From Gamaleyavirus NAN33P5, in the sequence record OZ035750.1: 64,000 nt of DNA; one strand, written 5' to 3'. Of this stretch, positions 5,778-60,792 are shown one piece after another (within the stretch, counting starts at the first letter, position 1; each line of letters starts with the position of its first letter). A program made the position numbers and the translations under genes. The notes below the pieces were generated by a model, which searched no databases, was not told the DNA's origin, and was given only the letters and a program-made list of their open reading frames with translations.

Positions 5778-7781
5778 ATGAATAAAATGTTCACACAGCC
5801 CACTGGACCAGTGGCTAAACAGACTAATAAACAAGCAATTGCTAGAATATTTTCCGTCAGGCAGGCAGATATAGGTTATATCAATGAGCATATACTAGTG
5901 GATGACTATACTCTGCTGTATGACCGTATCACAGAGGCTACGTGGTACAGAGGCACGGCAACGGGTACTCCACTCAGCTGGTCTGTAACTGGTTCCAAGC
6001 TTACTCTTACTACCACTACTGGTACTTATGAGCTAACTAAAGCTGCTGTTGTTACGGAAGCTTCTCTTAAGTCTCCTTCTGCTATGGAGTCTATTTATAC
6101 TCCTACGGGTGGTACACTGGCTTCTTTATTATTACGTACAGTTTCACCGGCAGAGTTTGGTTTAGTTAATGACCCAACCGGGGTTAATGCAGTTAAGAAT
6201 ACCAAAGCTGTTCAGGATGCGGTGCGTGAACTTAACCGTCTTGGTGGGGGCCGTCTTTTGTTCCCAACTGGGCAGTATACCTTTTGCTATGGCATTTGGT
6301 TATTCAGTAATATCCTTGTAGACCTTAATGGTAGTGTGTGTACATTTAAGGATGCTACCTTCCCATTACGTAGTCGTGCGTGTTTTGTCATGGGTTCTTC
6401 CTACGAGTCCAACCGAGAAAAAGCACTAGAGTTCTATGAAGATGGTTCTTTTGCTAACAATCCTAACCCTACTAATACAGCTTACGTTAACGTACCATTG
6501 GGTACTTTCTTACGTGACAATCCTAATAAGGTTGAGATTGAGAACTGCCATATCTATAACGGGCACTTAAAGGCTACATTCACATCTCCAACAGCTAATG
6601 GTGCATATGCAGTTAATATGGTCAATGCTCAGTATTGCTCAGCACACGACCTAACCTTTGATGGGTTTACAGAAGCTATTAACATGGGTTCGGATACAAA
6701 CAATGAAACCCCATCTTGTCATGGGTGCTCTGCTTATGACTTGGTTGTTTTATCCCCAGACCAGAATAAAACCTATTACTCCATTGGTTTTATTTCTAAC
6801 TCTACTAATTGTGCTATCTCCAGAGCACGGCAGATTGCACCATGTAAAGATGGTACAGAGAATGGTTCTGGCGTCGCTACTAACGTAGTAGAGGATTGCA
6901 TAATTGAGGATATCTTTATCCCATCCTTGGGTATTACTCAGTCTTCCGAGGGGGTACTACTTAATAATGCTAAAGGAAGTCTTGTCCGTAATATTTGTGT
7001 ACGTAATTGTAAGGTAGTTGTTGCTGTATTTTATGTAGGAACCAACTACATCAGTGCTGACAAATGGAACCATGTAACGGGGATTACTGGTAAGGGCACT
7101 ACTGCATTGATTGCAATTCGTGGTAAGTACACTACATTCTCTGACTTTGCTGCTGACTCTACTACCCCATATGAGATTTATTTTGGTACTTCCAACGGTT
7201 CCAATAACCGCATCGAACAAGAACCTAAGACCATCTATTTTACTGAGACGTCCACTATTAAGGCGTTCTGGTATTGCAACAATAACTACATTAAGGGGTG
7301 GGAGGTTAAGAGATTATACCTTAGACCTGCTCAAATATTACTGAATGATAAGGCGTCTGTATTCAGCTTCAATGCTAATAAGTCAGTAGCAATGAACGAT
7401 GATACGACCATTATGTTCTTGTATGACCTCCCACCAGGTATTAAAGCATTAAAGGCTGTTAAGTTGTTTGCCTACTACAACACTAACTCTGTGGCTAAAG
7501 GTAGTAGCATTACTATTGCTGTAAGGCGTATGGTAGCTATTGATGGTAACGCTAACGCTGAGCCATATGTAGAACCAGGTATTGCAGCTACTTCCAATGC
7601 TACCACTGATATGAAGGATATCTCTATGAGTGCTATACACTCAGATACAGTTAGTCCCGGTATGATTCGTATGGATGATACTACCAATGGACTGGCTAAT
7701 AATCTGGATGTACTCGTTACATTCTCCAATACAGCAAAAAACTCTTTGATGAAAGAGTGGGAAATAACTTACGTAGGATAA
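5778..7781 (+). CDS. second tailspike/tail fibre protein (beta-helix-like)
   Basis: 667 aa; N/T/S/G-rich repetitive segments; follows the first spike gene. Confidence 0.5.
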   Translation: MNKMFTQPTGPVAKQTNKQAIARIFSVRQADIGYINEHILVDDYTLLYDRITEATWYRGTATGTPLSWSVTGSKLTLTTTTGTYELTKAAVVTEASLKSPSAMESIYTPTGGTLASLLLRTVSPAEFGLVNDPTGVNAVKNTKAVQDAVRELNRLGGGRLLFPTGQYTFCYGIWLFSNILVDLNGSVCTFKDATFPLRSRACFVMGSSYESNREKALEFYEDGSFANNPNPTNTAYVNVPLGTFLRDNPNKVEIENCHIYNGHLKATFTSPTANGAYAVNMVNAQYCSAHDLTFDGFTEAINMGSDTNNETPSCHGCSAYDLVVLSPDQNKTYYSIGFISNSTNCAISRARQIAPCKDGTENGSGVATNVVEDCIIEDIFIPSLGITQSSEGVLLNNAKGSLVRNICVRNCKVVVAVFYVGTNYISADKWNHVTGITGKGTTALIAIRGKYTTFSDFAADSTTPYEIYFGTSNGSNNRIEQEPKTIYFTETSTIKAFWYCNNNYIKGWEVKRLYLRPAQILLNDKASVFSFNANKSVAMNDDTTIMFLYDLPPGIKALKAVKLFAYYNTNSVAKGSSITIAVRRMVAIDGNANAEPYVEPGIAATSNATTDMKDISMSAIHSDTVSPGMIRMDDTTNGLANNLDVLVTFSNTAKNSLMKEWEITYVG

Positions 7782-7784
7782 GCT

Positions 7785-8027
7785 ATGGATAACTCAGCAA
7801 GCCGTGATGTGATTCAGGTCTACCGTGCATTGTATGATTACCTGGTTAACCAGGAAAACCTAAATGCAGAGCAATCTCTTGTTAAAAGCAGACTTGAACA
7901 GGACCAGGGGATAATCTGTGATAGTTCCCTGGATAGTAAAGTATTTGCTATTCAGACCAGTGTGGCAAATGCCACTACAGACAAAGAACGGGATAGCTAC
8001 CTAGAAGCATTAGTTAGTATCCTGTAA
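7785..8027 (+). CDS. hypothetical protein
   Basis: 80-aa ORF, start 4 nt after spike gene stop, followed by terminator. Confidence 0.3.
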   Translation: MDNSASRDVIQVYRALYDYLVNQENLNAEQSLVKSRLEQDQGIICDSSLDSKVFAIQTSVANATTDKERDSYLEALVSIL

Positions 8028-8031
8028 ACAA

Positions 8032-8058
8032 AGCCCCCATAAAGGGGGCTTTTTCTTT
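8032..8058 (+). terminator. rho-independent terminator
   Basis: stem gccccc / gggggc, loop ataaa, followed by tttttcttt. Confidence 0.75.
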
Positions 8059-8123
8059 CTTCCTTACTCATACTTAAATCAGTATTATCATTCAGTCAGA
8101 CTCTTCTGATACGTCCCGAATGG

Positions 8124-8486
8124 GTGTTATTAAAAAACATTAAGGACTTTCTCATGAGCGATGAATCGACTTCGGTTCTTCTTGCCCGATTGGAGGAAAG
8201 ACTGGAAACACTATTTAAGAACCAAGAAAAAGAAGAACGCTCCAAAGATAGACTGGAGCAAACTCTATCTGGTTTGAGGGAGTCTGTTCAGCAAATGGAA
8301 GGCAGACTAAAGAACGTAGAGGATAGCCTTGCCAAGTCTGAACCCACCATAGAAGAGTTCATCACTATTAAACACAAAGTTGCTGGTGCTGGAATTTTTG
8401 GTAAGTGGGTATGGGCTGGAGCAGGTGCAATTATTGGCATATTGGCTGCTGCAAGACGGGAGATATTCGCATGGTTTGTAGGCTAA
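8124..8486 (+). CDS. coiled-coil protein with C-terminal transmembrane segment (possible lysis-associated/antiholin-like)
   Basis: 120 aa; charged helical N-terminal part, C-terminal 'AGAGIFGKWVWAGAGAIIGILAAA' hydrophobic segment; first gene of the lysis cluster. Confidence 0.35.
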   Translation: MLLKNIKDFLMSDESTSVLLARLEERLETLFKNQEKEERSKDRLEQTLSGLRESVQQMEGRLKNVEDSLAKSEPTIEEFITIKHKVAGAGIFGKWVWAGAGAIIGILAAARREIFAWFVG

Positions 8487-19680: not shown

Positions 19681-21645
19681 ATGGCTCAGATAACGTGGAG
19701 AAATGTTGATGCACCTAACTTCTCTGGAGTTGGTGACAGCATTCGCACATTTGGCAGCATGATTGGTAACGCCACCTCCGGCTTAAGTGATGCACTGGGT
19801 AATTTCCAGAACGCTGCCAAGCAGGAGGCTGGCAATGCCGTCATGATGAATGCTATGCAGTATCAGGACCCGAATGAATACCGTAATGCTTTGGCATCCG
19901 GTGCTCTGTTTCAGGGGGTTGACCCTTCACTGGTAAACCAGCGTACTCTTCAGAATCTGGATGAGCGAGCAGGTACATTACTGACTCAACAAGGACAGCA
20001 GGGAACCAATGACTACATTGCATATCGCTTTGGACGTTTACAGGATACTAACACTGCATTAGATAATGCTTCCCCTGCTATTCGTTTACTGTCTGAGGCT
20101 TATCAGTCGGGTGACCAGAATCGTATTAATGCTGCATTAAGTCAGACCCGTGATGCATTGTCTGCACTCCCTGCTGACCAACAACTGGAGATGATGGGTA
20201 GTCTTCAAGGTCAGGGCAGTCAGGCTATTAATCAGGCACAGAACCGTTTTGATTTGGGTGTGGCTCAACGTAATGATGCTGATAGTCAGGCAGCTATGGG
20301 TGTAATGTCACAGATTACCCGTGGTGCTGAGAACCCAAATGATGCCCGTCTGTTGGCAGAAGCATATAGTAAGAACCTGTCCCCAGTTGCACAGGCACGT
20401 TTGCAGGGATTACTGGCTAATGCTTACCCAGGTGTTTACGGTAATGGTGTAGGTGCTGCATCTGCTCCGGGTACTGCTGGTACACGGCAGGGTTCGCCTT
20501 ATGATGTTACTTACCAGTTTGCTGGTACATCTACTCCTATTACTCAAATGAGTATTGGTGATGTAATTAAACACCAGGATGGTATGAAATCGAACCAGGG
20601 TGCTTCACCTGTTGGTGCATTCCAGATTAACCAAGCTACTCTGAAAGACTTCGCTCCCAAAGTTCTTGGTTCAGATTGGCAAAGCCAGCCTCTTTCTCCT
20701 GAGAACCAGGATAAGATTGGTAAGGCTATCTTTGAGTCTCGTAAGAATGGTAACCTTAAAGATACCTGGGCTGCTCTGCCTAACTCTACCCCAGGTGCTT
20801 ATAAGGATATGACATGGGAAGAGGTTAAACCTGTTATTGCCCAAGCTGAAGTAGGGGCTGACCCACTTGCTATGGTTCAGAATAATCAGGGCAATCAGGC
20901 AGTATCTACTCTGGCTCAGGGTATGATTGGTACACGTTCTATGCAGGATAACACCGGTAGTCTTAATACTGACTTCCTCGGTACTGTCACTGATAATACC
21001 CCAGTGGGTGATATTGCTAACCGTCTGTTGGAGGGTGATTTTAAAGGTGCTGACCGTAACTGGGTACTGAACCGGCTGAACGATATTTCTCAGCGTGGAA
21101 ATATGTCACCAGCTATGGCTGCTGCTGTTATGCAACGTGCACAGACTGGAGTACCTGAGGGTTATATTGGTCGTGCTATTGATGCAGTTAACCCATTCAT
21201 TACCAATGAAGCCGGTAATGGTATGCGTCTTAATGACCGTCAGGTAGAACAGTTAATTGAAGGTGTAAAACGGGGGGAGCCACTGGAAGGTAGTGTTCGT
21301 AACCTAGGTCGTGCTCAGGCTATGCAGAACATTCAGGCAGCACAGACTGCATATGATGCTGCCGTAGCTGCACTGGCAAATACCCAGAATAAGATTAACA
21401 CCGGACAAAGTGGTCTTACTGCACTGTTACCTGCACGTCAGGAGGCTGTTACTAAAGCTGCTGCAATGCTCCAAGCTGCACAGGCACAAGTACAGGCTGA
21501 CCCAGCTAACCTGGCTCCAAGGGGTTTCCAGTCACAGGCTAGTGTAGATAGAGCACGAGCTAAGGAAGATGAAGAACGTGCTGCACGGTACTTACGTCAG
21601 GCACAAGGACTGCCTGAGTATATGCAACCAAGGCAAAATCGGTAA
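19681..21645 (+). CDS. virion protein, possible muralytic (transglycosylase-like) ejection protein
   Basis: 654 aa; segment 'GASPVGAFQINQATL' weakly resembles SLT 'GLMQ' region; followed by strong terminator. Confidence 0.4.
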   Translation: MAQITWRNVDAPNFSGVGDSIRTFGSMIGNATSGLSDALGNFQNAAKQEAGNAVMMNAMQYQDPNEYRNALASGALFQGVDPSLVNQRTLQNLDERAGTLLTQQGQQGTNDYIAYRFGRLQDTNTALDNASPAIRLLSEAYQSGDQNRINAALSQTRDALSALPADQQLEMMGSLQGQGSQAINQAQNRFDLGVAQRNDADSQAAMGVMSQITRGAENPNDARLLAEAYSKNLSPVAQARLQGLLANAYPGVYGNGVGAASAPGTAGTRQGSPYDVTYQFAGTSTPITQMSIGDVIKHQDGMKSNQGASPVGAFQINQATLKDFAPKVLGSDWQSQPLSPENQDKIGKAIFESRKNGNLKDTWAALPNSTPGAYKDMTWEEVKPVIAQAEVGADPLAMVQNNQGNQAVSTLAQGMIGTRSMQDNTGSLNTDFLGTVTDNTPVGDIANRLLEGDFKGADRNWVLNRLNDISQRGNMSPAMAAAVMQRAQTGVPEGYIGRAIDAVNPFITNEAGNGMRLNDRQVEQLIEGVKRGEPLEGSVRNLGRAQAMQNIQAAQTAYDAAVAALANTQNKINTGQSGLTALLPARQEAVTKAAAMLQAAQAQVQADPANLAPRGFQSQASVDRARAKEDEERAARYLRQAQGLPEYMQPRQNR

Positions 21646-52913: not shown

Positions 52914-53046
52914 TTATTTACTCTCCAGTTTAAATGTTGCTTATAGGAAAAGACTGAATACAACTATGGAAATACCTACGGCTGTACCGTATGTACCTAA
53001 TAATTCATTAAGTATGTAGGGTAGAGCCATGAAATAGTTGAATACT

Positions 53047-53361
53047 TCAACCATTACGTTTACCTGCCATTGCTTGAAGGATAAATACTACAGCATCAGA
53101 AATCTGATCATCAGTTGGCTCAACTAATTGTCCATCCTCATCATACATTTCTTTCAGAAGTGCATTCAGTTCAGACATACCAGCCAGTACCATTTGCTCA
53201 TTTGGTTCCAGCCATAATTTACGTTCTTCTGCTAGTGCAGCAATACACATACACAGAGAAGCGATGTTAGCTGGACAAGCAGCAATATCACCGGTAACTG
53301 CAATATCGCTAAGTGGAACAGCCTTGCCAGTTTTACTATGAATAACTTCAGGATTAATCAT
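53047..53361 (-). CDS. hypothetical protein
   Basis: ORF 53047..53409 trimmed to internal Met ('MINPEV...') to avoid overlap. Confidence 0.3.
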   Translation of the reverse strand: MINPEVIHSKTGKAVPLSDIAVTGDIAACPANIASLCMCIAALAEERKLWLEPNEQMVLAGMSELNALLKEMYDEDGQLVEPTDDQISDAVVFILQAMAGKRNG

Positions 53362-53566
53362 GGATTTGCTCCAGGTTGTGGGCAGGAATAGGGAAACATG
53401 GATAGTCACCGGTAGGATCCAGTGTTACTGATACATGCAGTGTATTTGTCATTTGGGTTAACATCAGGGCAGCATTGAAATCATCTTGGATACAGGCATA
53501 TACAATGTCACCTTTCTCACCCTCACACATTAGTGGAGTGTCTTTGATACAGTATTTAGCAGGCAT
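53354..53566 (-). CDS. hypothetical protein
   Basis: 70-aa ORF. Confidence 0.3.
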   Translation of the reverse strand: MPAKYCIKDTPLMCEGEKGDIVYACIQDDFNAALMLTQMTNTLHVSVTLDPTGDYPCFPIPAHNLEQIHD

Positions 53567-53588
53567 ATGCCCTCCTAAAAGAGTTAAT

Positions 53589-53622
53589 TGAAACCAAAAA
53601 AAGACCTCCCGAAGGAGGTCTT
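53589..53622 (-). terminator. intrinsic terminator (minus sense)
   Basis: gacctcc-cgaa-ggaggtc hairpin with plus-strand aaaaaaa (U-tract on minus transcript). Confidence 0.75.
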
Positions 53623-53626
53623 AGGT

Positions 53627-53863
53627 TTACTTACGATTTTCTTCTACGAATTGTCGTAGACGTTCCTTAGCATCATCATGTTCCTTGATAGCTACATAGT
53701 CACGTGCATAGTAATACACACACCACAAGCCAAGAACACATGCAGAGAAACGGGCTACTACAAAGAACATCTCTTCCAGGCTCTGTGCACCATGCAGTGC
53801 AAATACAAATTCCAGAACCAGGATGATACTTATAATCATTGCTTGTATAGCTAGACGTTTCAT
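53627..53863 (-). CDS. small membrane protein
   Basis: 78 aa, two hydrophobic helices. Confidence 0.35.
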   Translation of the reverse strand: MKRLAIQAMIISIILVLEFVFALHGAQSLEEMFFVVARFSACVLGLWCVYYYARDYVAIKEHDDAKERLRQFVEENRK

Positions 53864-54804
53864 TCTGTAATTGTTTCCCCAGGGATTAGTTTACGTAATT
53901 GGATAAAATCTAACAGGTTGCCTGAATACAGATTACCTACACGGTCCATAGATGTAACACCTTGTTCCCAGGTTAATGGGTTCTGGTTGTTAATGAACTT
54001 ATCACCAAACAGCATAGGAGTTGCTTGATGTTCAGTAGGTGAAGCATGGATAGGTTGGTCTTCAACCAACTTAGCGAACAACCCTAAGTCCTCTTCAATA
54101 GTAGAAGGACGGCCTTCGAAATTGTTGTAAGAAGCACGAGCACAGCGAGCAGCACTTACTTTAAGAAGTAAACCATACACTTCTGCACCACTTGGTTCAT
54201 CACGAGTAATTCGTTGATGTTTGCAGAAATCGTAAGCAGCAAAACGATCATTAGCAGTGATATATGGCATATGCCAATGCCCTTGCATGAGTTTTGATGG
54301 AACACTTTCATTATGAGCCTTACGCATTGCTTGGGCCAGTTCACGAATCTCTGGCTGTGCATCTTTATGGTCACGCAAGCCATAGAAGTTAGCCCAGCTA
54401 GTTGAAGTTACCACTACACGAATATGTGTGAAGGGTTCCAGAATACGGTTAACAATCTGTTTATGTACTTGTCCACGACGCAGTTGTTCAGCATATACAG
54501 CAGCAGCAGATGCAGCGTTATCCCAGATAAACTTAGCATCCTCAATCTCCATAGGAGTGAGTTCTTCATCTGCTTGCATACCTTTCTGGTTCTTGCCCCA
54601 GTGACTTGGCATCACTGGTTCATTACGAACCTGTTCGATGAACTTAGAGGTAGGGATAGCACGACTACTTGAAGCATTGCGGTTGAATACACGGTGGGTC
54701 ATAAACTCACTGTGAATGAATCGGGGATAAACCAATTCAAAGGTAGTAATACGAGTACCCGTTGCATGATGAACGGAATCTGCAATGACAGTTGCCTTAA
54801 TCAT
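53860..54804 (-). CDS. thyX: flavin-dependent thymidylate synthase
   Basis: 314 aa; 'THRVFNRNASSSRA' matches ThyX RHR...S...R signature region. Confidence 0.7.
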   Translation of the reverse strand: MIKATVIADSVHHATGTRITTFELVYPRFIHSEFMTHRVFNRNASSSRAIPTSKFIEQVRNEPVMPSHWGKNQKGMQADEELTPMEIEDAKFIWDNAASAAAVYAEQLRRGQVHKQIVNRILEPFTHIRVVVTSTSWANFYGLRDHKDAQPEIRELAQAMRKAHNESVPSKLMQGHWHMPYITANDRFAAYDFCKHQRITRDEPSGAEVYGLLLKVSAARCARASYNNFEGRPSTIEEDLGLFAKLVEDQPIHASPTEHQATPMLFGDKFINNQNPLTWEQGVTSMDRVGNLYSGNLLDFIQLRKLIPGETITE

Positions 54805-55247
54805 TAGAATGACCTTAGATAGTTGGTGATACCACTACGGCTTTCTGTAATCTTCTTGGCCTGAACATATACCAGCTTAAACTCACTACGTGGTAGTTCC
54901 TGTAATACTGCTATACCTTCAGTAAGAGCCACAGAACATGCTACAGCGGTTTCTTTTTTAAAGGAGTACAAGTCTTCATATATGAGGGACTCATACTCTT
55001 TGCGGAGCATACAGAGAGCATCTCTTGCCTTATCACTTACTTCTTGTGAACCAGCAGACATAGCTAAGCTGTATATGATAAAGACTTGTTCGAAAACAAA
55101 GTCCAGTAATCTATCAGGGTTGCTAGTCCCCATGAATAATTTTGTTGCGTAGGAACGGGCTTTACGGTTGAGTTCGTACTCATCCTCTATGCCTTTATTA
55201 TAAAGAACAGGACTTCGTTCCCTTTTTCTTAGGAATGGGATACGCAT
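54804..55247 (-). CDS. hypothetical protein
   Basis: 147-aa ORF. Confidence 0.3.
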   Translation of the reverse strand: MRIPFLRKRERSPVLYNKGIEDEYELNRKARSYATKLFMGTSNPDRLLDFVFEQVFIIYSLAMSAGSQEVSDKARDALCMLRKEYESLIYEDLYSFKKETAVACSVALTEGIAVLQELPRSEFKLVYVQAKKITESRSGITNYLRSF

Positions 55248-55633
55248 TAGTATTTACTACTTCTTCTATACCAAGGGTAATGGTGGGTAGTGCTCTTGCC
55301 TTTGAACACATCCTTGGTATATGGATTTTTTTGTATTTGAGCCAGGTAAAGATACATGTCGTTATAACACGGACTAAGCCAGAACTTATCTATGATTCGG
55401 TATACCTTAGATTTCAGATGAGGTTCAGGAGGGATGTATGGGAAAACATTAAATGATCTACTAGTCCATCCTTTCTGAATAAGAACTTGCATTGCTGCAT
55501 AAACATCAGAGTTAATCCCATTATTTTCCACCAGGTCATGCATAGTTTTACCTAAAGTAAGCATTGCAGTTTGTTCCAGTTTACTTAAGTCCAGTCCATA
55601 TAAGATAGACTTACCATTTTGTCTGTTTGACAT
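55247..55633 (-). CDS. hypothetical protein
   Basis: 128-aa ORF. Confidence 0.3.
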   Translation of the reverse strand: MSNRQNGKSILYGLDLSKLEQTAMLTLGKTMHDLVENNGINSDVYAAMQVLIQKGWTSRSFNVFPYIPPEPHLKSKVYRIIDKFWLSPCYNDMYLYLAQIQKNPYTKDVFKGKSTTHHYPWYRRSSKY

Positions 55634-55650
55634 AAGAGTACCTGTAATTA

Positions 55651-55676
55651 AAAAAGCCCACGGGTTAGGTGGGCTT
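55651..55676 (-). terminator. intrinsic terminator (minus sense)
   Basis: gcccac-gggttag-gtgggc hairpin preceded on plus strand by aaaaa. Confidence 0.6.
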
Positions 55677-55750
55677 GGATTAGGAGATGGATAAGCAATG
55701 AGCTGGAAGTAACTTCCACAAGCACCACCATATAATGATGCTTAGGTTAG

Positions 55751-56029
55751 TTACTCTGCTTTACTGTCACCATTGGTTTGAACAACAGTTACATTTGTAA
55801 CTTGGTTCTGACCTTTGTTAGACAATGACCAGATCAGTGCTACTACCCAGAAGATTAAAGACCAGCCTAATACGATATTGAGTACACCAATACCCCACTT
55901 AGAGGCATGGCCTCGTGCAAAAGCAATGATAGTAGGGATAAGGTATACAGCTAATATGAATAAGAAAACAAGGATTGCTGCTAAAGATTCCATGATGGTT
56001 CCTATGTGAGGTTTAGTTAGTTTCTTCAC
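55751..56029 (-). CDS. small membrane protein
   Basis: 92 aa with two predicted TM helices. Confidence 0.35.
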   Translation of the reverse strand: MKKLTKPHIGTIMESLAAILVFLFILAVYLIPTIIAFARGHASKWGIGVLNIVLGWSLIFWVVALIWSLSNKGQNQVTNVTVVQTNGDSKAE

Positions 56030-56066
56030 AAATAGCCCAACTATGCCGGGCTATTTAGGCAGCTAC

Positions 56067-56273
56067 TTACTCAGCATCTTTGCTTGCAGGAGCAAGAGCT
56101 TTCTTCAGGTAATTACGTACTGAACGATAGGTTTCTTTGGTAATTACTACATCACCACCTACGGTAGTAATAGCAGAGTTACCTGCGGTAAGTTCTTGTA
56201 CTGCAATCACTTGGTTCGCATTAATGGTCAGGCGAATACCAATACTTTCTTGAGTTACTTGAAATACTGACAT
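56067..56273 (-). CDS. hypothetical protein
   Basis: 68-aa ORF. Confidence 0.3.
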   Translation of the reverse strand: MSVFQVTQESIGIRLTINANQVIAVQELTAGNSAITTVGGDVVITKETYRSVRNYLKKALAPASKDAE

Positions 56274-56303
56274 ATTGTTTCCTTGATTAAGCCGGATAGC
56301 CTT

Positions 56304-56810
56304 TTATTTTGAAGGTCTAGCAGCTACTGGTTTGTTTTCCTGGTTATTGTACTTGCCAGTATATGTGGCAGGTTCTTGAACCAGATGAAATAATACTTGA
56401 GCTATCCCAGCACCAGCCGGGATATGCAGCTTCTTACGACCATGATAGACCAGTTCGAGGGTAAGATACCCTTTCCATCCTGGTTCTATTACAGTATTAA
56501 ATACAGATAATGCACGTCTTGCCCATGTGGATTTATCGTGAACGATAGCTACACAGGATGGAGACATGTTGAACTTCTCAATTGCTGAAGCCAATGCGAA
56601 TTTACCGAAATGGCGTGATACTTGTTTTCCATCAACGATTTTCACCATTGGAATCAACCCAAATAAGCGATAGAAGGTGATGTCTTGTTTGATACGAATA
56701 TCATATCCAGCTTCGCCCAACCCATAGCTTACACCATGCTCGGATACCTTACGGTCTGGGACATCCAGCAATTGAGATGAACGGTATAGAGAATTACCAT
56801 TAACAACCAT
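56304..56810 (-). CDS. dCTP deaminase / dUTPase-superfamily enzyme
   Basis: 168 aa; 'GYDIR' and 'GWKGYLTLELVYHG...IAQVLF' resemble dCTP deaminase motifs. Confidence 0.7.
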   Translation of the reverse strand: MVVNGNSLYRSSQLLDVPDRKVSEHGVSYGLGEAGYDIRIKQDITFYRLFGLIPMVKIVDGKQVSRHFGKFALASAIEKFNMSPSCVAIVHDKSTWARRALSVFNTVIEPGWKGYLTLELVYHGRKKLHIPAGAGIAQVLFHLVQEPATYTGKYNNQENKPVAARPSK

Positions 56811-57985: not shown

Positions 57986-57992
57986 GTTGTGA

Positions 57993-58398
57993 TTATCCGT
58001 GAATGTAACGAGAGATGTTGGCAGCAGCCTTACGCCATTCAGGGGTAGCCTGAATTTCTGGTAATGCTTTACCTACTGTACGGAAGTACAGAATCTTATG
58101 GGTGAACGTTTTAAAGCGTTCAATATACTGAAGTACATCAGCGAAGTTATCTTCAGTAGTCTTGTTAGCCAAATGGTTAACGGTAGCCCAACACAGGTTA
58201 TTATCTTCCGGTAGTACACAGCCCAAAGGGTCTTTAACTACCTTCTCAATCGTAATCATACGATTGTATACCTGAGTGAACTGAACAAATTCTGTAGCTT
58301 TACCGGCAGTAACGTGGCCTGCATAGTAGATAGAATCTTCATCAGGCAGAGCACCTTCCGGTCGGTTCTTAAGGTCTTTGTTAACAAAGTCCCAAGTC
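57993..58398 (-). CDS. MoxR-like AAA+ ATPase, exon 3 (C-terminal part)
   Basis: Frame continues from inferred 3' splice site (about 58399); ORF-track fragment 57993..58421 starts at a TTG inside the intron. Confidence 0.5.
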
Positions 58399-59261
58399 GT
58401 GATATTCGACGTAGTTCGCAAGACTACGCCCGTTCTCTTATGAACTGCTGCATGTCACCATGCAGACTAGACTATATCAACACCCTTAGCATTACCTGTA
58501 GGGTGGCTACCATTTCGAGCATCATTAGCTTATGCTCTACTCCCTCCCGGGATAGTCGTTGGACATTTATGGAAGTCAGAAATTACGTTTACGTCTAGTA
58601 TCCCCAATTGAGTCCAGATAGGCATCTACGGCTTTAGCAGCAGCTACCTCATCTTTAAACTGTTTGTAGAATACTACCTTGTAATTATCTTTAACCTTGG
58701 CTTCGTAATAAGTGTAAATTTTATCTTTATACTTACTACGACGTATGTGCACATTATGGTACACAGACTTACCTGGTTTAGGGGCTAGCCCAGTTTTATG
58801 AGCATGGAGATTATTGTCTTGTGTGGTGCATGGTTCCAGGTTGTCTTCATGGTTATTCTCCTTATTACCATCTAAGTGGTTAACAGGATCACCATACTTA
58901 AAGCCTGGTTTAAATGCTGCACAAACGAGTTGATGAATAGTTTTCTTATGGGTCTTCCCATCTTTGTACATAGAGGCATACAGATAGCCTAATCGGTTCT
59001 TGTTAAGTGCCCTGATAAGGGGCTTAACTTCTCTGTACTTATTTACAGATTGGCGTGACTCATGCTTACGGTATTTACCTGTATTAGATACTTGGTATAA
59101 ACCTTCAAATTCAACAACATCTTTCCAAATCTCACTCATGCTGACTCCCAATTTAGTAACGGATTGACTTTTACATATTACCTTTAGGCAACAGAAAGTA
59201 AAGTGTTTCCCGTTTTAGGCAGCTTTAGACAGGGAATTACTCCCCTGAATCGCAGTGTGTT
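58399..59261 (-). mobile_element. group-I-like intron B carrying HNH homing endonuclease ORF (boundaries approximate, 5' end uncertain)
   Basis: Interrupts ATPase ORF; contains HNH ORF 58576..59151 and a conserved about 150-nt core shared with intron A. Confidence 0.5.
58576..59151 (-). CDS. intron-encoded HNH homing endonuclease (NUMOD4-like N-terminus)
   Basis: 191 aa; 'EIWKDVVEFEGLYQVSNTGK' and 'HQLVCAAF...VNHLDGNKENNHEDNLE' HNH motif; TTG start in track. Confidence 0.75.
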   Translation of the reverse strand: MGVSMSEIWKDVVEFEGLYQVSNTGKYRKHESRQSVNKYREVKPLIRALNKNRLGYLYASMYKDGKTHKKTIHQLVCAAFKPGFKYGDPVNHLDGNKENNHEDNLEPCTTQDNNLHAHKTGLAPKPGKSVYHNVHIRRSKYKDKIYTYYEAKVKDNYKVVFYKQFKDEVAAAKAVDAYLDSIGDTRRKRNF

Positions 59262-59596
59262 TACGAGGACAACAGAATGTCTTGTTCTTATGGGCAGGGT
59301 CGAAGTCGTGCAGATAGCCAGGGTTAGCATGTAAGAATGCAACCAGACGCTCATCCCATTCTTGTGGAATCATTACGTCTTCAACAAAGATGTCGAAGTT
59401 AAGTTCCATTTCGAAGTGGACAACACGAGACTGCATTGCAGTACCCAGTGGGTTAACGATGGCTCGGTCAGTAGCTTTGTTACCGGCACAGATAATCATC
59501 ACATTAGGGTGAAGTTTTTTCTGTCCAGTCATACGGTCTAGAATCAGTTTGTATGCAGCAGCTACTACTTCTTTCTTAGCTGAGTTGAATTCGTCG
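59262..59596 (-). CDS. MoxR-like AAA+ ATPase, exon 2 (Walker B / sensor region)
   Basis: Begins 'DEFNSAKK...MIICAGNKATDRAIVNPLGTAMQSRVVHFEM'; joins exon 1 to give 'GWLLFLDEFNSA' Walker B; 3' boundary approximate. Confidence 0.5.
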
Positions 59597-60478
59597 CATT
59601 ATCTTCACATTAGTTCGCAACTACTAATGCCGTCAGTACACTCAGTGAATACTGACTGCTGCATGTCACCATGCAGAGGAGACTATATCAAAGCCCTATT
59701 GCTAGGGCTGTTACCGTTTCGAGTGCCATTGGCTTGCACCCTACTCTACTCACTTCCACATTTCTGTGTGTTTTCGATAGTCGTTTGGCGTTTAAATGAA
59801 ATTGGTACTGTACCCAATCTGTGTAAGATTGTTGTTAGTTACGTAGGAGTCATAGGCTTTGGCAGCCTCTTCCTCTGTTTTGTAACGTCCCAAACCAATA
59901 GATTTCTTGTTAACCCTTATATGGGCACACCATCTTTGTCTTTGCTCACTCCAGGATACACCTACGTATTTGGAGGAGCCTCCACGATTTTTGTTACTAG
60001 CGTTGGCATGTCTGTTTGACAATAATCCAGTATCCCAAGCATGTTTAATATTTTGGGACTGGGTACACCATTCCAGGTTACTCTCGTGGTTATTAAGAGG
60101 GTTTCCATCTATATGATTAATAACTGGATAGTTATTGGGGTTTGGTACAAAGGCTATGCCTACCAGACGATGAACTTGATATTTGTACACTTTACTATTC
60201 ATGTACAGGTTCACGCAGTAGTACCCTTTGTTATTAAGATACGGTTTTATATGTGTCCTATTTTTGTATTTATACTTTCCTTCTTTTCGGCGTACTACAC
60301 CAAAGTTGGAAACTTCATACGGTAAGTCGGGCACATCTTTCCAAATTTCATTATTTAGCACAGGATTGTCTCCAATTGATTAAAACTCAAGTATACACCT
60401 GAGCCAACCATATTAGAAGAGGTTCCCTGTTTAGGTAACTTTCGACATGAGATTGCTCTCATGAAGCCCCGTCAGTTA
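59597..60478 (-). mobile_element. group-I-like intron A carrying HNH homing endonuclease ORF
   Basis: Inserted exactly within the Walker B codons; exon 1 ends in U, inferred intron ends in G; contains HNH ORF 59792..60361 and the conserved core 59611..59788. Confidence 0.55.
59792..60361 (-). CDS. intron-encoded HNH homing endonuclease with AP2-like domain
   Basis: 189 aa; 'EIWKDVPDLPYEVSNFGVVRR', 'HRLVGIAF...INHIDGNPLNNHESNLEW' HNH motif and 'YVGVSW...RWCAHIRVNKKSIGLGRYKTEEEAAKAYD' AP2-like domain. Confidence 0.8.
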   Translation of the reverse strand: MLNNEIWKDVPDLPYEVSNFGVVRRKEGKYKYKNRTHIKPYLNNKGYYCVNLYMNSKVYKYQVHRLVGIAFVPNPNNYPVINHIDGNPLNNHESNLEWCTQSQNIKHAWDTGLLSNRHANASNKNRGGSSKYVGVSWSEQRQRWCAHIRVNKKSIGLGRYKTEEEAAKAYDSYVTNNNLTQIGYSTNFI

Positions 60479-60792
60479 AGGAACAAGAGCCAGCCATTAT
60501 AACCTTCTGGTACTTCGTCACCCTCGATAGGGAATAAGTCAGCGAAAGGGATAAACTCTGCACGATCACCATTACGGAATGGTAGACCAGACAAGTCTTC
60601 CGGGGCAGAAGTAGACAGACGATGGTCAATCAGCTTCATGCCAAATTCTTCTGCAACAGAACGAATAATTGCAGACTTACCCATGCCAGGTGATGAAGTC
60701 AGGAACGGTACGTTACCTGCTTGCAAGGCACGGATAATAAAGTTACGGGCTTGGCGTGTATTACATACAGTCAAGGAGTCAATGCTCGCCAT
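60479..60792 (-). CDS. MoxR-like AAA+ ATPase, exon 1 (Walker A)
   Basis: 'FLTSSPGMGKSAIIRSVAEEFGMKLIDHRL' P-loop; ORF terminates two codons after 'GWLLFL' where the intron begins. Confidence 0.55.

Follow-up and report, generated by a model that had tools for sequence, protein, structure and literature searches.

Conserved middle genes and predicted small membrane proteins, one of them of T4 Imm type, around thyX of Gamaleyavirus NAN33P5

What are the short genes that crowd around thyX in Gamaleyavirus NAN33P5, and do the small membrane proteins among their products serve superinfection exclusion? We addressed this question in a window of 64,000 nucleotides (nt) from sequence record OZ035750.1. 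At positions 53047-56273, seven minus-strand open reading frames (ORFs), with mechanically called lengths of 68, 92, 128, 147, 78, 70, and 120 amino acids (aa), surround thyX (53860-54804) and adjoin the dCTP deaminase gene (56304-56810). One explanation covers the observations jointly, and we give it a probability of about 0.8: a conserved gp26-gp33 middle-gene block to which three genes for hydrophobic proteins were added, arranged in four units and encoding two membrane factors. These are an Imm-type protein of 80 aa (Imm80) and an orphan protein of 78 aa with two predicted transmembrane segments (TM78).

Short genes around thyX and their relatives

The window belongs to a Gamaleyavirus (G7C-like; Schitoviridae, Enquatrovirinae), an N4-like podovirus. 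The 3.5 kb around the feature were 98.3% identical to Klebsiella phage vB_Kpl_K57alpha1.2 and 86-92% identical to dozens of Escherichia phages of the same genus. In total, 77 phage records matched this 3.5-kb region, and the block is present in more than 50 GenBank genomes. Comparison with the annotated relatives PhAPEC7, G7C, 24-32N, St11Ph5, ECBP1, UE-S5a, SP5M, PW8, and nithesis, plus N4, gave a one-to-one gene map. Every gene of the region lies on the minus strand, as do the hairpin and terminators described below. This is nothing out of the ordinary: G7C-type coliphages have such a "middle gene" stretch, gp27-gp32, and it has been annotated before.

Each of the seven ORFs matched a PHROG family (E 6e-26 to 4e-87). 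Codon-aligned comparison with ten relatives gave ratios of non-synonymous to synonymous substitution (dN/dS) of 0.03-0.66 throughout, which means purifying selection. Since the families match and dN/dS is well below 1, we consider the seven ORFs to be genes and not chance frames. That some of them are chance ORFs in the spacer between thyX, dCTP deaminase, and rIIA is scarcely credible to us. Such a reading could draw on a further frame, orf37, which has only 37 aa, occurs in few relatives, and gave a weak DUF3961 match (E 0.13) and no NCBIfam match. It could also draw on the 68-aa ORF (orf68), where constraint is most relaxed (dN/dS about 0.5). However, the PHROG matches of all seven original ORFs are of the order of E 1e-26 or better, and all seven show the low dN/dS. 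Moreover, ORF length and position are conserved over 50-70 genomes, and start/stop overlaps and ribosome-binding sites are in place.

Two starts had to be moved. Most relatives annotate the 92-aa ORF with 80 aa, and G7C, St11Ph5, and nithesis with 83-86 aa. An AGGAA ribosome-binding site precedes the ATG at 55993, most likely the true start, giving 80 aa. For the 120-aa ORF, the PHROG match starts only at residue 17, where an ATG overlaps the stop of the previous gene; here the start is most likely ATG 53361, giving 104 aa and an 8-nt overlap on that gene. With these two corrections, the coordinates in the initial annotation, which had placed seven short ORFs around thyX near nucleotide-metabolism genes, were confirmed. 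Its list was incomplete, as it missed the 37-aa ORF at 53054-52941.

By sequence comparison, five of the seven are orthologues of N4 gp27, gp28, gp29, gp31, and gp32. The backbone runs dCTP deaminase, gp27-like, gp28-like, gp29-like, ThyX, gp31-like, gp32-like, and rIIA, and its unassigned products are soluble proteins accompanying nucleotide metabolism. N4 has the same order and orientation between dCTP deaminase and rIIA, but it lacks Imm, TM78, and orf37. The equivalents of Imm80, TM78, and orf37 in G7C (gp27.1, gp30.1, and gp32.1) and those in PhAPEC7, SP5M, St11Ph5, and ECBP1 are direct orthologues in the same order. With tblastn, the ORFs were found in 54-74 phage records, almost all from Enquatrovirinae. 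A few other Schitoviridae have relatives of the gp27-like and gp29-like proteins as well. In JWDelta, Frozen, Piffle, and RPP1, the corresponding region is taken up by small genes of other kinds.

The expectation that these would be variable accessory genes was thus half right. Five of the seven are conserved N4 orthologues, whereas Imm, TM78, and orf37 are missing from N4. Even for the two membrane genes the term needs care: phage records with Imm80 number 52 and those with TM78 54, about as many as the 55 with a Gamaleyavirus-type gp29-like gene. Nor are the ORFs core genes with structural roles in all relatives. None is annotated as structural or belongs to the core or structural genes of Schitoviridae, N4 does without three of the genes, and G7C does without the gp28-like one.

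The block would be divided into four units: one ending with dCTP deaminase and the gp27-like gene; the Imm80 gene alone; gp28-like, gp29-like, thyX, and TM78; and gp31-like, gp32-like, orf37, and rIIA onwards. The initial annotation had described each ORF as bounded by hairpin terminators, which was too generous. Our consensus scan over 9 kb, with shuffles as control, gave 7 terminator-like sites against 5.7 +/- 2.6 by chance, and only two were canonical coding-strand terminators. The first, after the Imm80 gene and upstream of the gp28-like gene (55676-55654), has an 8-bp stem with 5 G-C pairs and U6. The second, after TM78 and upstream of the gp31-like gene (53622-53601), has a 9-bp stem, a UUCG loop, and U7 (-17.2 kcal/mol, z -3.8). 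Besides, a hairpin with a 13-bp stem and no proper U-tract lies after orf68 and before the Imm80 gene (56030-56057; -16.6 kcal/mol, z -2.25). The weight of the two terminators comes from their position, conserved in relatives and N4, and not from their count. Both are annotated in PhAPEC7 and SP5M; in N4, the gap of the first holds a terminator built in the same way, and the gp30-gp31 gap holds another. A stem-loop is likewise annotated after the orf68 equivalent of G7C, and N4 has an 11-bp hairpin at this position.

The gp28-like, gp29-like, thyX, and TM78 genes are joined by stop/start overlaps (TAATG, TAATG, and ATGA), which mark them as one translationally coupled operon, closed by the 53622-53601 terminator. 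In N4, the hairpin and the terminator stand back to back in the gp27-gp28 gap, and Imm would most simply have been inserted between these two elements already in place. TM78 would have been inserted between thyX and its terminator. Both membrane genes thus lie just upstream of N4-shared terminators, which suggests insertions. Together with orf37, they would be the three small hydrophobic-protein genes, not in N4, that were added to the backbone.

Sigma-70 promoters were fewer than expected by chance (11 found, 22 expected), a deficit that fits transcription by a phage RNA polymerase. Because N4-type middle promoters are loosely defined (AT-rich, -7 to +2; PMC4496689), we called none. Middle transcripts of N4 cover the left half of its genome (PMC4496689), and we infer middle expression for the present block too. 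Within the block, the search for structured RNAs in Rfam returned only a sub-threshold Trp_leader match on a terminator, and the repeat search only short chance pairs.

G7C-like phages carry this block as a standard feature that is annotated in public records, and databases already contain the Imm assignment. Beyond the annotations and papers examined, our additions are modest: orf68 as an orthologue of N4 gp27, the membrane genes at N4-shared terminators, and an ancient dimorphism of TM78. For the most part, the finding tidies annotation, and one 'unknown' membrane protein gains a clear family assignment.

A T4 Imm-type protein between a hairpin and a terminator

The Imm80 gene (55751-55993; mechanically 92 aa from GTG 56029) encodes that protein. 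The initial annotation had found nothing assignable by motif among the short ORFs. Imm80, however, matched Pfam PF14373 (Imm_superinfect) with a score of 61.6 bits (cut-off 27.9; E 6.3e-17) over all 42 positions of the model, and phrog_1039, 'immunity to superinfection', with E 3.7e-31. It aligned over its full length with T4 Imm (83 aa), at 29% identity over 82 columns in BLASTP (E 4e-11) and 32% in MAFFT. Residues R33 and W50 of T4 Imm correspond to R27 and W44 of Imm80, and neither varies among the five sequences aligned. In T4, R33 lies in the helical core and W50 in the loop facing the tape measure protein, and R33A and W50A each impair exclusion (preprint 10.64898/2026.03.06.709160).

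With the Kyte-Doolittle scale (KD) and a 19-residue window, Imm80 has two hydrophobic windows, at residues 7-25 (KD 2.87) and 35-53 (KD 2.27). On this hydropathy, it is predicted to be a small integral inner-membrane protein. The earlier observation of paired transmembrane helices in two of the ORFs holds, since Imm80 and TM78 each have two hydrophobic segments. By every sequence-level criterion open to testing, Imm80 is a member of the T4 Imm family.

This family is widespread. It was found with tblastn in 850 phage records, including the imm genes of T-even phages, Acinetobacter myoviruses, Salmonella siphoviruses, and mycobacteriophages. Imm80 was 84-96% identical to its orthologues in G7C, PhAPEC7, SP5M, St11Ph5, ECBP1, and others. 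The G7C record already labels gp27.1 as an Imm homologue, and many later records do likewise ('immunity to superinfection').

T4 Imm binds gp29, the tape measure protein of T4, and blocks formation of the genome-translocation pore (preprint 10.64898/2026.03.06.709160), a mechanism worked out only recently. By homology, Imm80 would insert in the inner membrane of the infected cell and block the pore-forming step in genome delivery of a later-arriving phage, as T4 Imm does through tape-measure binding. By this analogy, Imm80 is most likely an inner-membrane protein that stops a later-arriving phage at the step of membrane penetration. The likeness extends to a length of about 80 aa, the same pattern of hydrophobic helices, full-length alignment, and the retained R33 and W50 equivalents. 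There are differences too. Imm80 is carried by a podovirus that lacks a tape measure protein, whereas T4 Imm is known to target one. Its gene belongs to an N4-type middle operon, with a hairpin on one side and a terminator on the other. Identity is only 29-32%, and activity and target are predictions from homology.

As to the target, N4-type genome delivery employs gp52, gp51, and the N-terminal domain of gp50, and the C-terminus of gp51 has been proposed to take part in an inner-membrane complex. Imm80 might mainly exclude unrelated, tape-measure-bearing competitors on the same enterobacterial host (T-even-like myoviruses and siphoviruses) and not its own kind, a serious possibility that we nevertheless hold short of even odds. 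In its favor, T4 Imm works by binding a tape measure protein, and N4-like podoviruses use gp50, gp51, and gp52 with no such protein. Against Imm homologues from myoviruses and siphoviruses that infect Acinetobacter, Klebsiella, Citrobacter, Escherichia, and Salmonella, the core of Imm80 showed 47-64% identity. This core is nearly invariant among relatives, despite the C-terminal half of the gp51-like protein being dimorphic (at least 92% against about 47% identity). However, because identity to T4 Imm is only 29-32%, target specificity cannot be carried over from sequence, and Imm80 could just as well exclude its own kind through some conserved part of the ejectosome.

An Imm homologue in a phage with no tape measure offers a direct test between action on other ejection machineries and competition across families. 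It matters in practice as well. G7C-like phages are candidates for therapy and biocontrol, and the behavior of phages in cocktails depends in part on exclusion genes. Should Imm80 exclude T-even-like phages, combining both types in one cocktail could be counter-productive.

Lysis inhibition shows a pattern of its own. N4 has lysis inhibition on superinfection and carries no Imm; G7C reportedly has no lysis inhibition, and G7C-type phages carry Imm. The contrast between N4 and G7C raises the question of whether blocking the entry of secondary DNA removes the signal for lysis inhibition.

With phage morons, accessory genes that are bracketed independently and inserted among conserved ones, Imm80 has in common that it is a single gene in an intergenic gap, absent from the sister genus, with its own terminator after it. 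It differs from them in that the bracketing hairpin and terminator already exist in N4, and hence were not imported with Imm80. Moreover, no promoter of its own was identified for Imm80, and the phage is virulent, not temperate.

An orphan two-segment protein after thyX

The second membrane factor, TM78 (53627-53863), is the equivalent of G7C gp30.1 and matched phrog_12633 (E 2e-43); its ATG overlaps the thyX stop (ATGA). On the Kyte-Doolittle scale, hydrophobic windows cover residues 4-22 and 32-50 and are followed by a charged tail (ARDYVAIKEHDDAKERLRQFVEENRK). The N-terminus is basic and the loop between the segments acidic; by the positive-inside rule, this sequence suggests a membrane hairpin with both termini in the cytoplasm. 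Both allele classes described below keep the motif GLWCxYYxARDYxAI(K/R)E where the second segment ends. From such features, the conserved cytoplasmic juxtamembrane motif and the charged tail would contact a partner.

TM78 is confined to a narrow group. The 54 phage records that contain it are all Escherichia, Shigella, or Klebsiella phages of Gamaleyavirus type. A profile search of 1.84 billion cluster representatives gave 6 matches, all from the same small family, and searches of Pfam and NCBIfam returned nothing above noise. Since N4 does without it, TM78 is unlikely to belong to the replication machinery. Its sequence makes a further accessory factor at the membrane, acting in exclusion or host interaction, the most likely reading. 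The initial annotation had proposed superinfection exclusion for the small membrane proteins in general; membership of the T4 Imm family supports this for Imm80, and for TM78, from an orphan family, the proposal is neither supported nor excluded.

TM78 alleles fall into two classes, 79-100% and 38-55% identical to the window copy. Among the equivalents in G7C, PhAPEC7, SP5M, St11Ph5, ECBP1, and others, the class A alleles were 92-96% identical to the window copy. Between the classes, synonymous divergence (dS) was 1.2-2.0, against 0.3-0.6 for the adjoining thyX in the same genome pairs, and the dN/dS of TM78 was 0.18-0.41. High dS with low dN/dS means that the alleles are old, selectively maintained, and exchanged by recombination, and not the product of rapid positive selection. 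They showed no co-segregation with the allele groups of the gp31-like or gp32-like genes.

The overlap with thyX raises the alternative that TM78 tethers ThyX, the nucleotide-synthesis enzymes, or a membrane-bound middle transcription/replication complex to the membrane. Both genes belong to one operon, closed by the terminator, and conservation within TM78 is highest in the predicted cytoplasmic juxtamembrane motif and tail. In N4, complexes of RNAPII, gp2, and DNA are tightly bound to the cytoplasmic membrane (PMC4496689). However, no TM78 homologue follows thyX in N4, JWDelta, and other ThyX-encoding Schitoviridae, and the dS of TM78 is out of keeping with tight co-evolution with ThyX. As relatives encode ThyX without TM78 and the TM78 alleles are far older than those of thyX, a tether is unlikely.

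As a further alternative, TM78 would be a holin, antiholin, or lysis-timing regulator, for like class II holins it has two hydrophobic segments and a highly charged C-terminal tail. About 700 bp downstream there are homologues of rIIA and rIIB, whose names come from lysis inhibition in T4. TM78 is unlike class II holins in genome position and family: it sits in a nucleotide-metabolism operon of the middle-gene region and not in a lysis cassette, and matches no holin family in Pfam or PHROGs. The N4 lysis cassette, gp60-gp63, is elsewhere in the genome, and its holins are experimentally defined. The phenotypes also run the wrong way, N4 having lysis inhibition and no TM78, and G7C having TM78 and reportedly no lysis inhibition. 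Given position and phenotype distribution, we regard a holin role as improbable, and a membrane-level accessory factor is still the reading of TM78 that we prefer.

A bolder reading starts from a T4-type Imm that, as far as the sequences indicate, has both key residues fixed throughout a podovirus genus with no tape measure. Either Imm-family proteins also jam the gp50/gp51/gp52 ejectosome, or a virulent podovirus wields Imm against tape-measure-bearing competitors; TM78 would then be a second membrane factor, and its two ancient classes would mark exclusion or interaction types, shuffled among genomes that are otherwise about 90% identical. We offer it as tentative, and rather doubtful as a whole.

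Several points count against the joint explanation. A count of two terminators does not exceed what chance would produce. The T4 mechanism is not literally applicable to self-exclusion in a podovirus that lacks a tape measure protein, and the nearly invariant Imm80 core beside a dimorphic C-terminal half of the gp51-like protein is weak evidence against that region as the target. For TM78, comparison of the classes with gp52-like identities and with the gp51-like C-terminal half showed no co-segregation and identified no partner; there is no association because both classes occur with both partner types. Among the backbone proteins, the structure model of the gp28-like protein failed, and the fold search with the gp29-like one returned generic helical bundles only, with no informative neighbor. 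Finally, our literature searches found no published expression, localization, or exclusion data for any Gamaleyavirus gene discussed here.

The 3' end of TM78 is repeated in one relative. In Escherichia phage vB_EcoP_CU10EC (PQ435408; 1741-2340 of the compared stretch), TM78 is followed by three further tandem units of about 100-200 nt. Each combines the 3' third of TM78 with the terminator; the last unit is longer and also takes in the first codons of the gp31-like gene. The repeats reflect either a genuine tandem duplication at this terminator or an error of assembly.

Backbone genes, the slot before rIIA, and other features of the window

ThyX, the flavin-dependent thymidylate synthase (53860-54804; N4 gp30), anchors the block. 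It was 71% identical to its N4 counterpart and matched Pfam Thy1 (E 1e-13) and phrog_85 (E 4e-112). On N4 gp27-gp32 we found no functional data in the literature.

First in the block, orf68 (56067-56273; phrog_7594, E 6e-26) encodes a small soluble protein and follows the dCTP deaminase gene. Over its full length, it was 37% identical to N4 gp27 (pairwise E 4e-9), which contradicts the published note on PhAPEC7 that its gp27, the orf68 orthologue, has no similarity to N4. The gp27 family also follows dCTP deaminase in the Erwinia N4-like phage Frozen and was detected in Pseudomonas phage CRC2. Some GenBank records name it 'flagellar and swarming motility protein'. We rejected an assignment to FlbD/SwrD (PF06289): neither the window protein nor N4 gp27 matched it, and G7C gp27 reached 16.6 bits (E 0.006), below the gathering cut-off of 24.7. 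A profile search of PDB with orf68 was empty.

The gp28-like gene (55247-55633; phrog_12812, E 3e-70) encodes a basic protein of 128 aa whose C-terminal half resembles N4 gp28, with 46% identity over 43% of the length. N4 gp28 itself has 80 aa. Residues 73-128 are conserved in Klebsiella KP8-like phages. The AlphaFold model of this protein had a predicted local distance difference test (pLDDT) score of 50, on a shallow multiple sequence alignment (76-90% identity), and was not used; its profile search of PDB was empty.

The gp29-like gene (54804-55247) overlaps the gp28-like gene upstream and thyX downstream, each time with TAATG. Its 147-aa product was 37% identical to N4 gp29 and is predicted with confidence to be an all-alpha helical bundle (pLDDT 87.9). 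It showed no profile or fold similarity to all-alpha NTP pyrophosphohydrolases (MazG or dATP/dGTP diphosphohydrolase). A protein of JWAlpha shares the fold (TM-score 0.77) and has a counterpart in JWDelta, a phage of the same species (Jwalphavirus), where its gene lies directly upstream of thyX and overlaps it. With the same fold and the same position beside thyX, the gp29-thyX pairing spans two subfamilies, and this hints at a functional link between the gp29-like protein and ThyX.

After the second terminator, the gp31-like gene (53354-53566; phrog_7900, E 6e-29) has a strong ribosome-binding site, AGGAGG, and encodes an acidic protein of 70 aa with four cysteines, 50-54% identical to N4 gp31. 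Its dN/dS was 0.03-0.10 against Gamaleyavirus relatives and 0.25 against N4. The gp32-like gene (53047-53361; phrog_9004, E 1.5e-53) encodes 104 aa from ATG 53361 (mechanically 120 aa from GTG 53409), 52-54% identical to N4 gp32. Among relatives, it forms two allele groups, about 72% and 91-96% identical.

The third added gene, orf37 (52941-53054), was read from the sequence and overlaps the gp32-like stop by 8 nt. Its product has a hydrophobic C-terminus (MVEVFNYFMALPYILNELLGTYGTAVGISIVVFSLFL). Compared with G7C gp32.1, the ATG-internal 29 aa were 97% identical (tblastn) and the full 37 aa 92%, with a dN/dS of 0.21. The place in front of rIIA is filled by three unrelated alternatives, of 37, 63 (most relatives), or 70 aa (PW8), so that orf37 may occupy a hot-swap slot. 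The window and G7C both have the 37-aa ORF there; they differ in that G7C has an extra gene, gp30.2, and no gp28-like gene, and the window the opposite.

The block as a whole is a mosaic. dCTP deaminase, gp29-like, thyX, and rIIA were uniformly 85-100% identical among relatives, whereas the orf68, TM78, gp31-like, and gp32-like genes switch allele groups independently of one another.

In the record of the closest relative (OY979416.1), the annotation is out of keeping with the sequence. A partial pseudogene feature on the opposite strand, named 'virion RNA polymerase', spans the entire gp26-gp33 region, and the feature coordinates are apparently out of register.

Elsewhere in the window, the C-terminal half of the gp51-like ejection protein (20743-21642, plus strand) belongs to one of two classes among relatives, at least 92% identical or about 47% identical (ECBP1, St11Ph5, CU10EC, and HK2). 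These classes do not track the TM78 allele class.

A gp24-like AAA ATPase gene (57996-60645, minus strand) is contiguous in PhAPEC7 and, by comparison with it, split into at least three pieces in the window (60645-60475, about 59679-59263, and 58397-57996). The pieces are separated by two insertions of about 800-865 nt, each with a NUMOD4/HNH_3 homing-endonuclease ORF (59792-60361 and 58576-59151). Rfam group I intron matches in the two insertions were sub-threshold (35.6 bits, E 8e-7, and 19.6 bits, E 0.049; gathering 50). This looks like two intron-plus-endonuclease insertions in a single gene, to go by its sequence. In G7C (418-894 of the compared stretch) and UE-S5a (7691-8167), a free-standing HNH endonuclease gene stands between gp24 and gp25; in the window, the gp24-gp25 gap is only 7 nt (57986-57992), and the endonucleases lie instead inside gp24.

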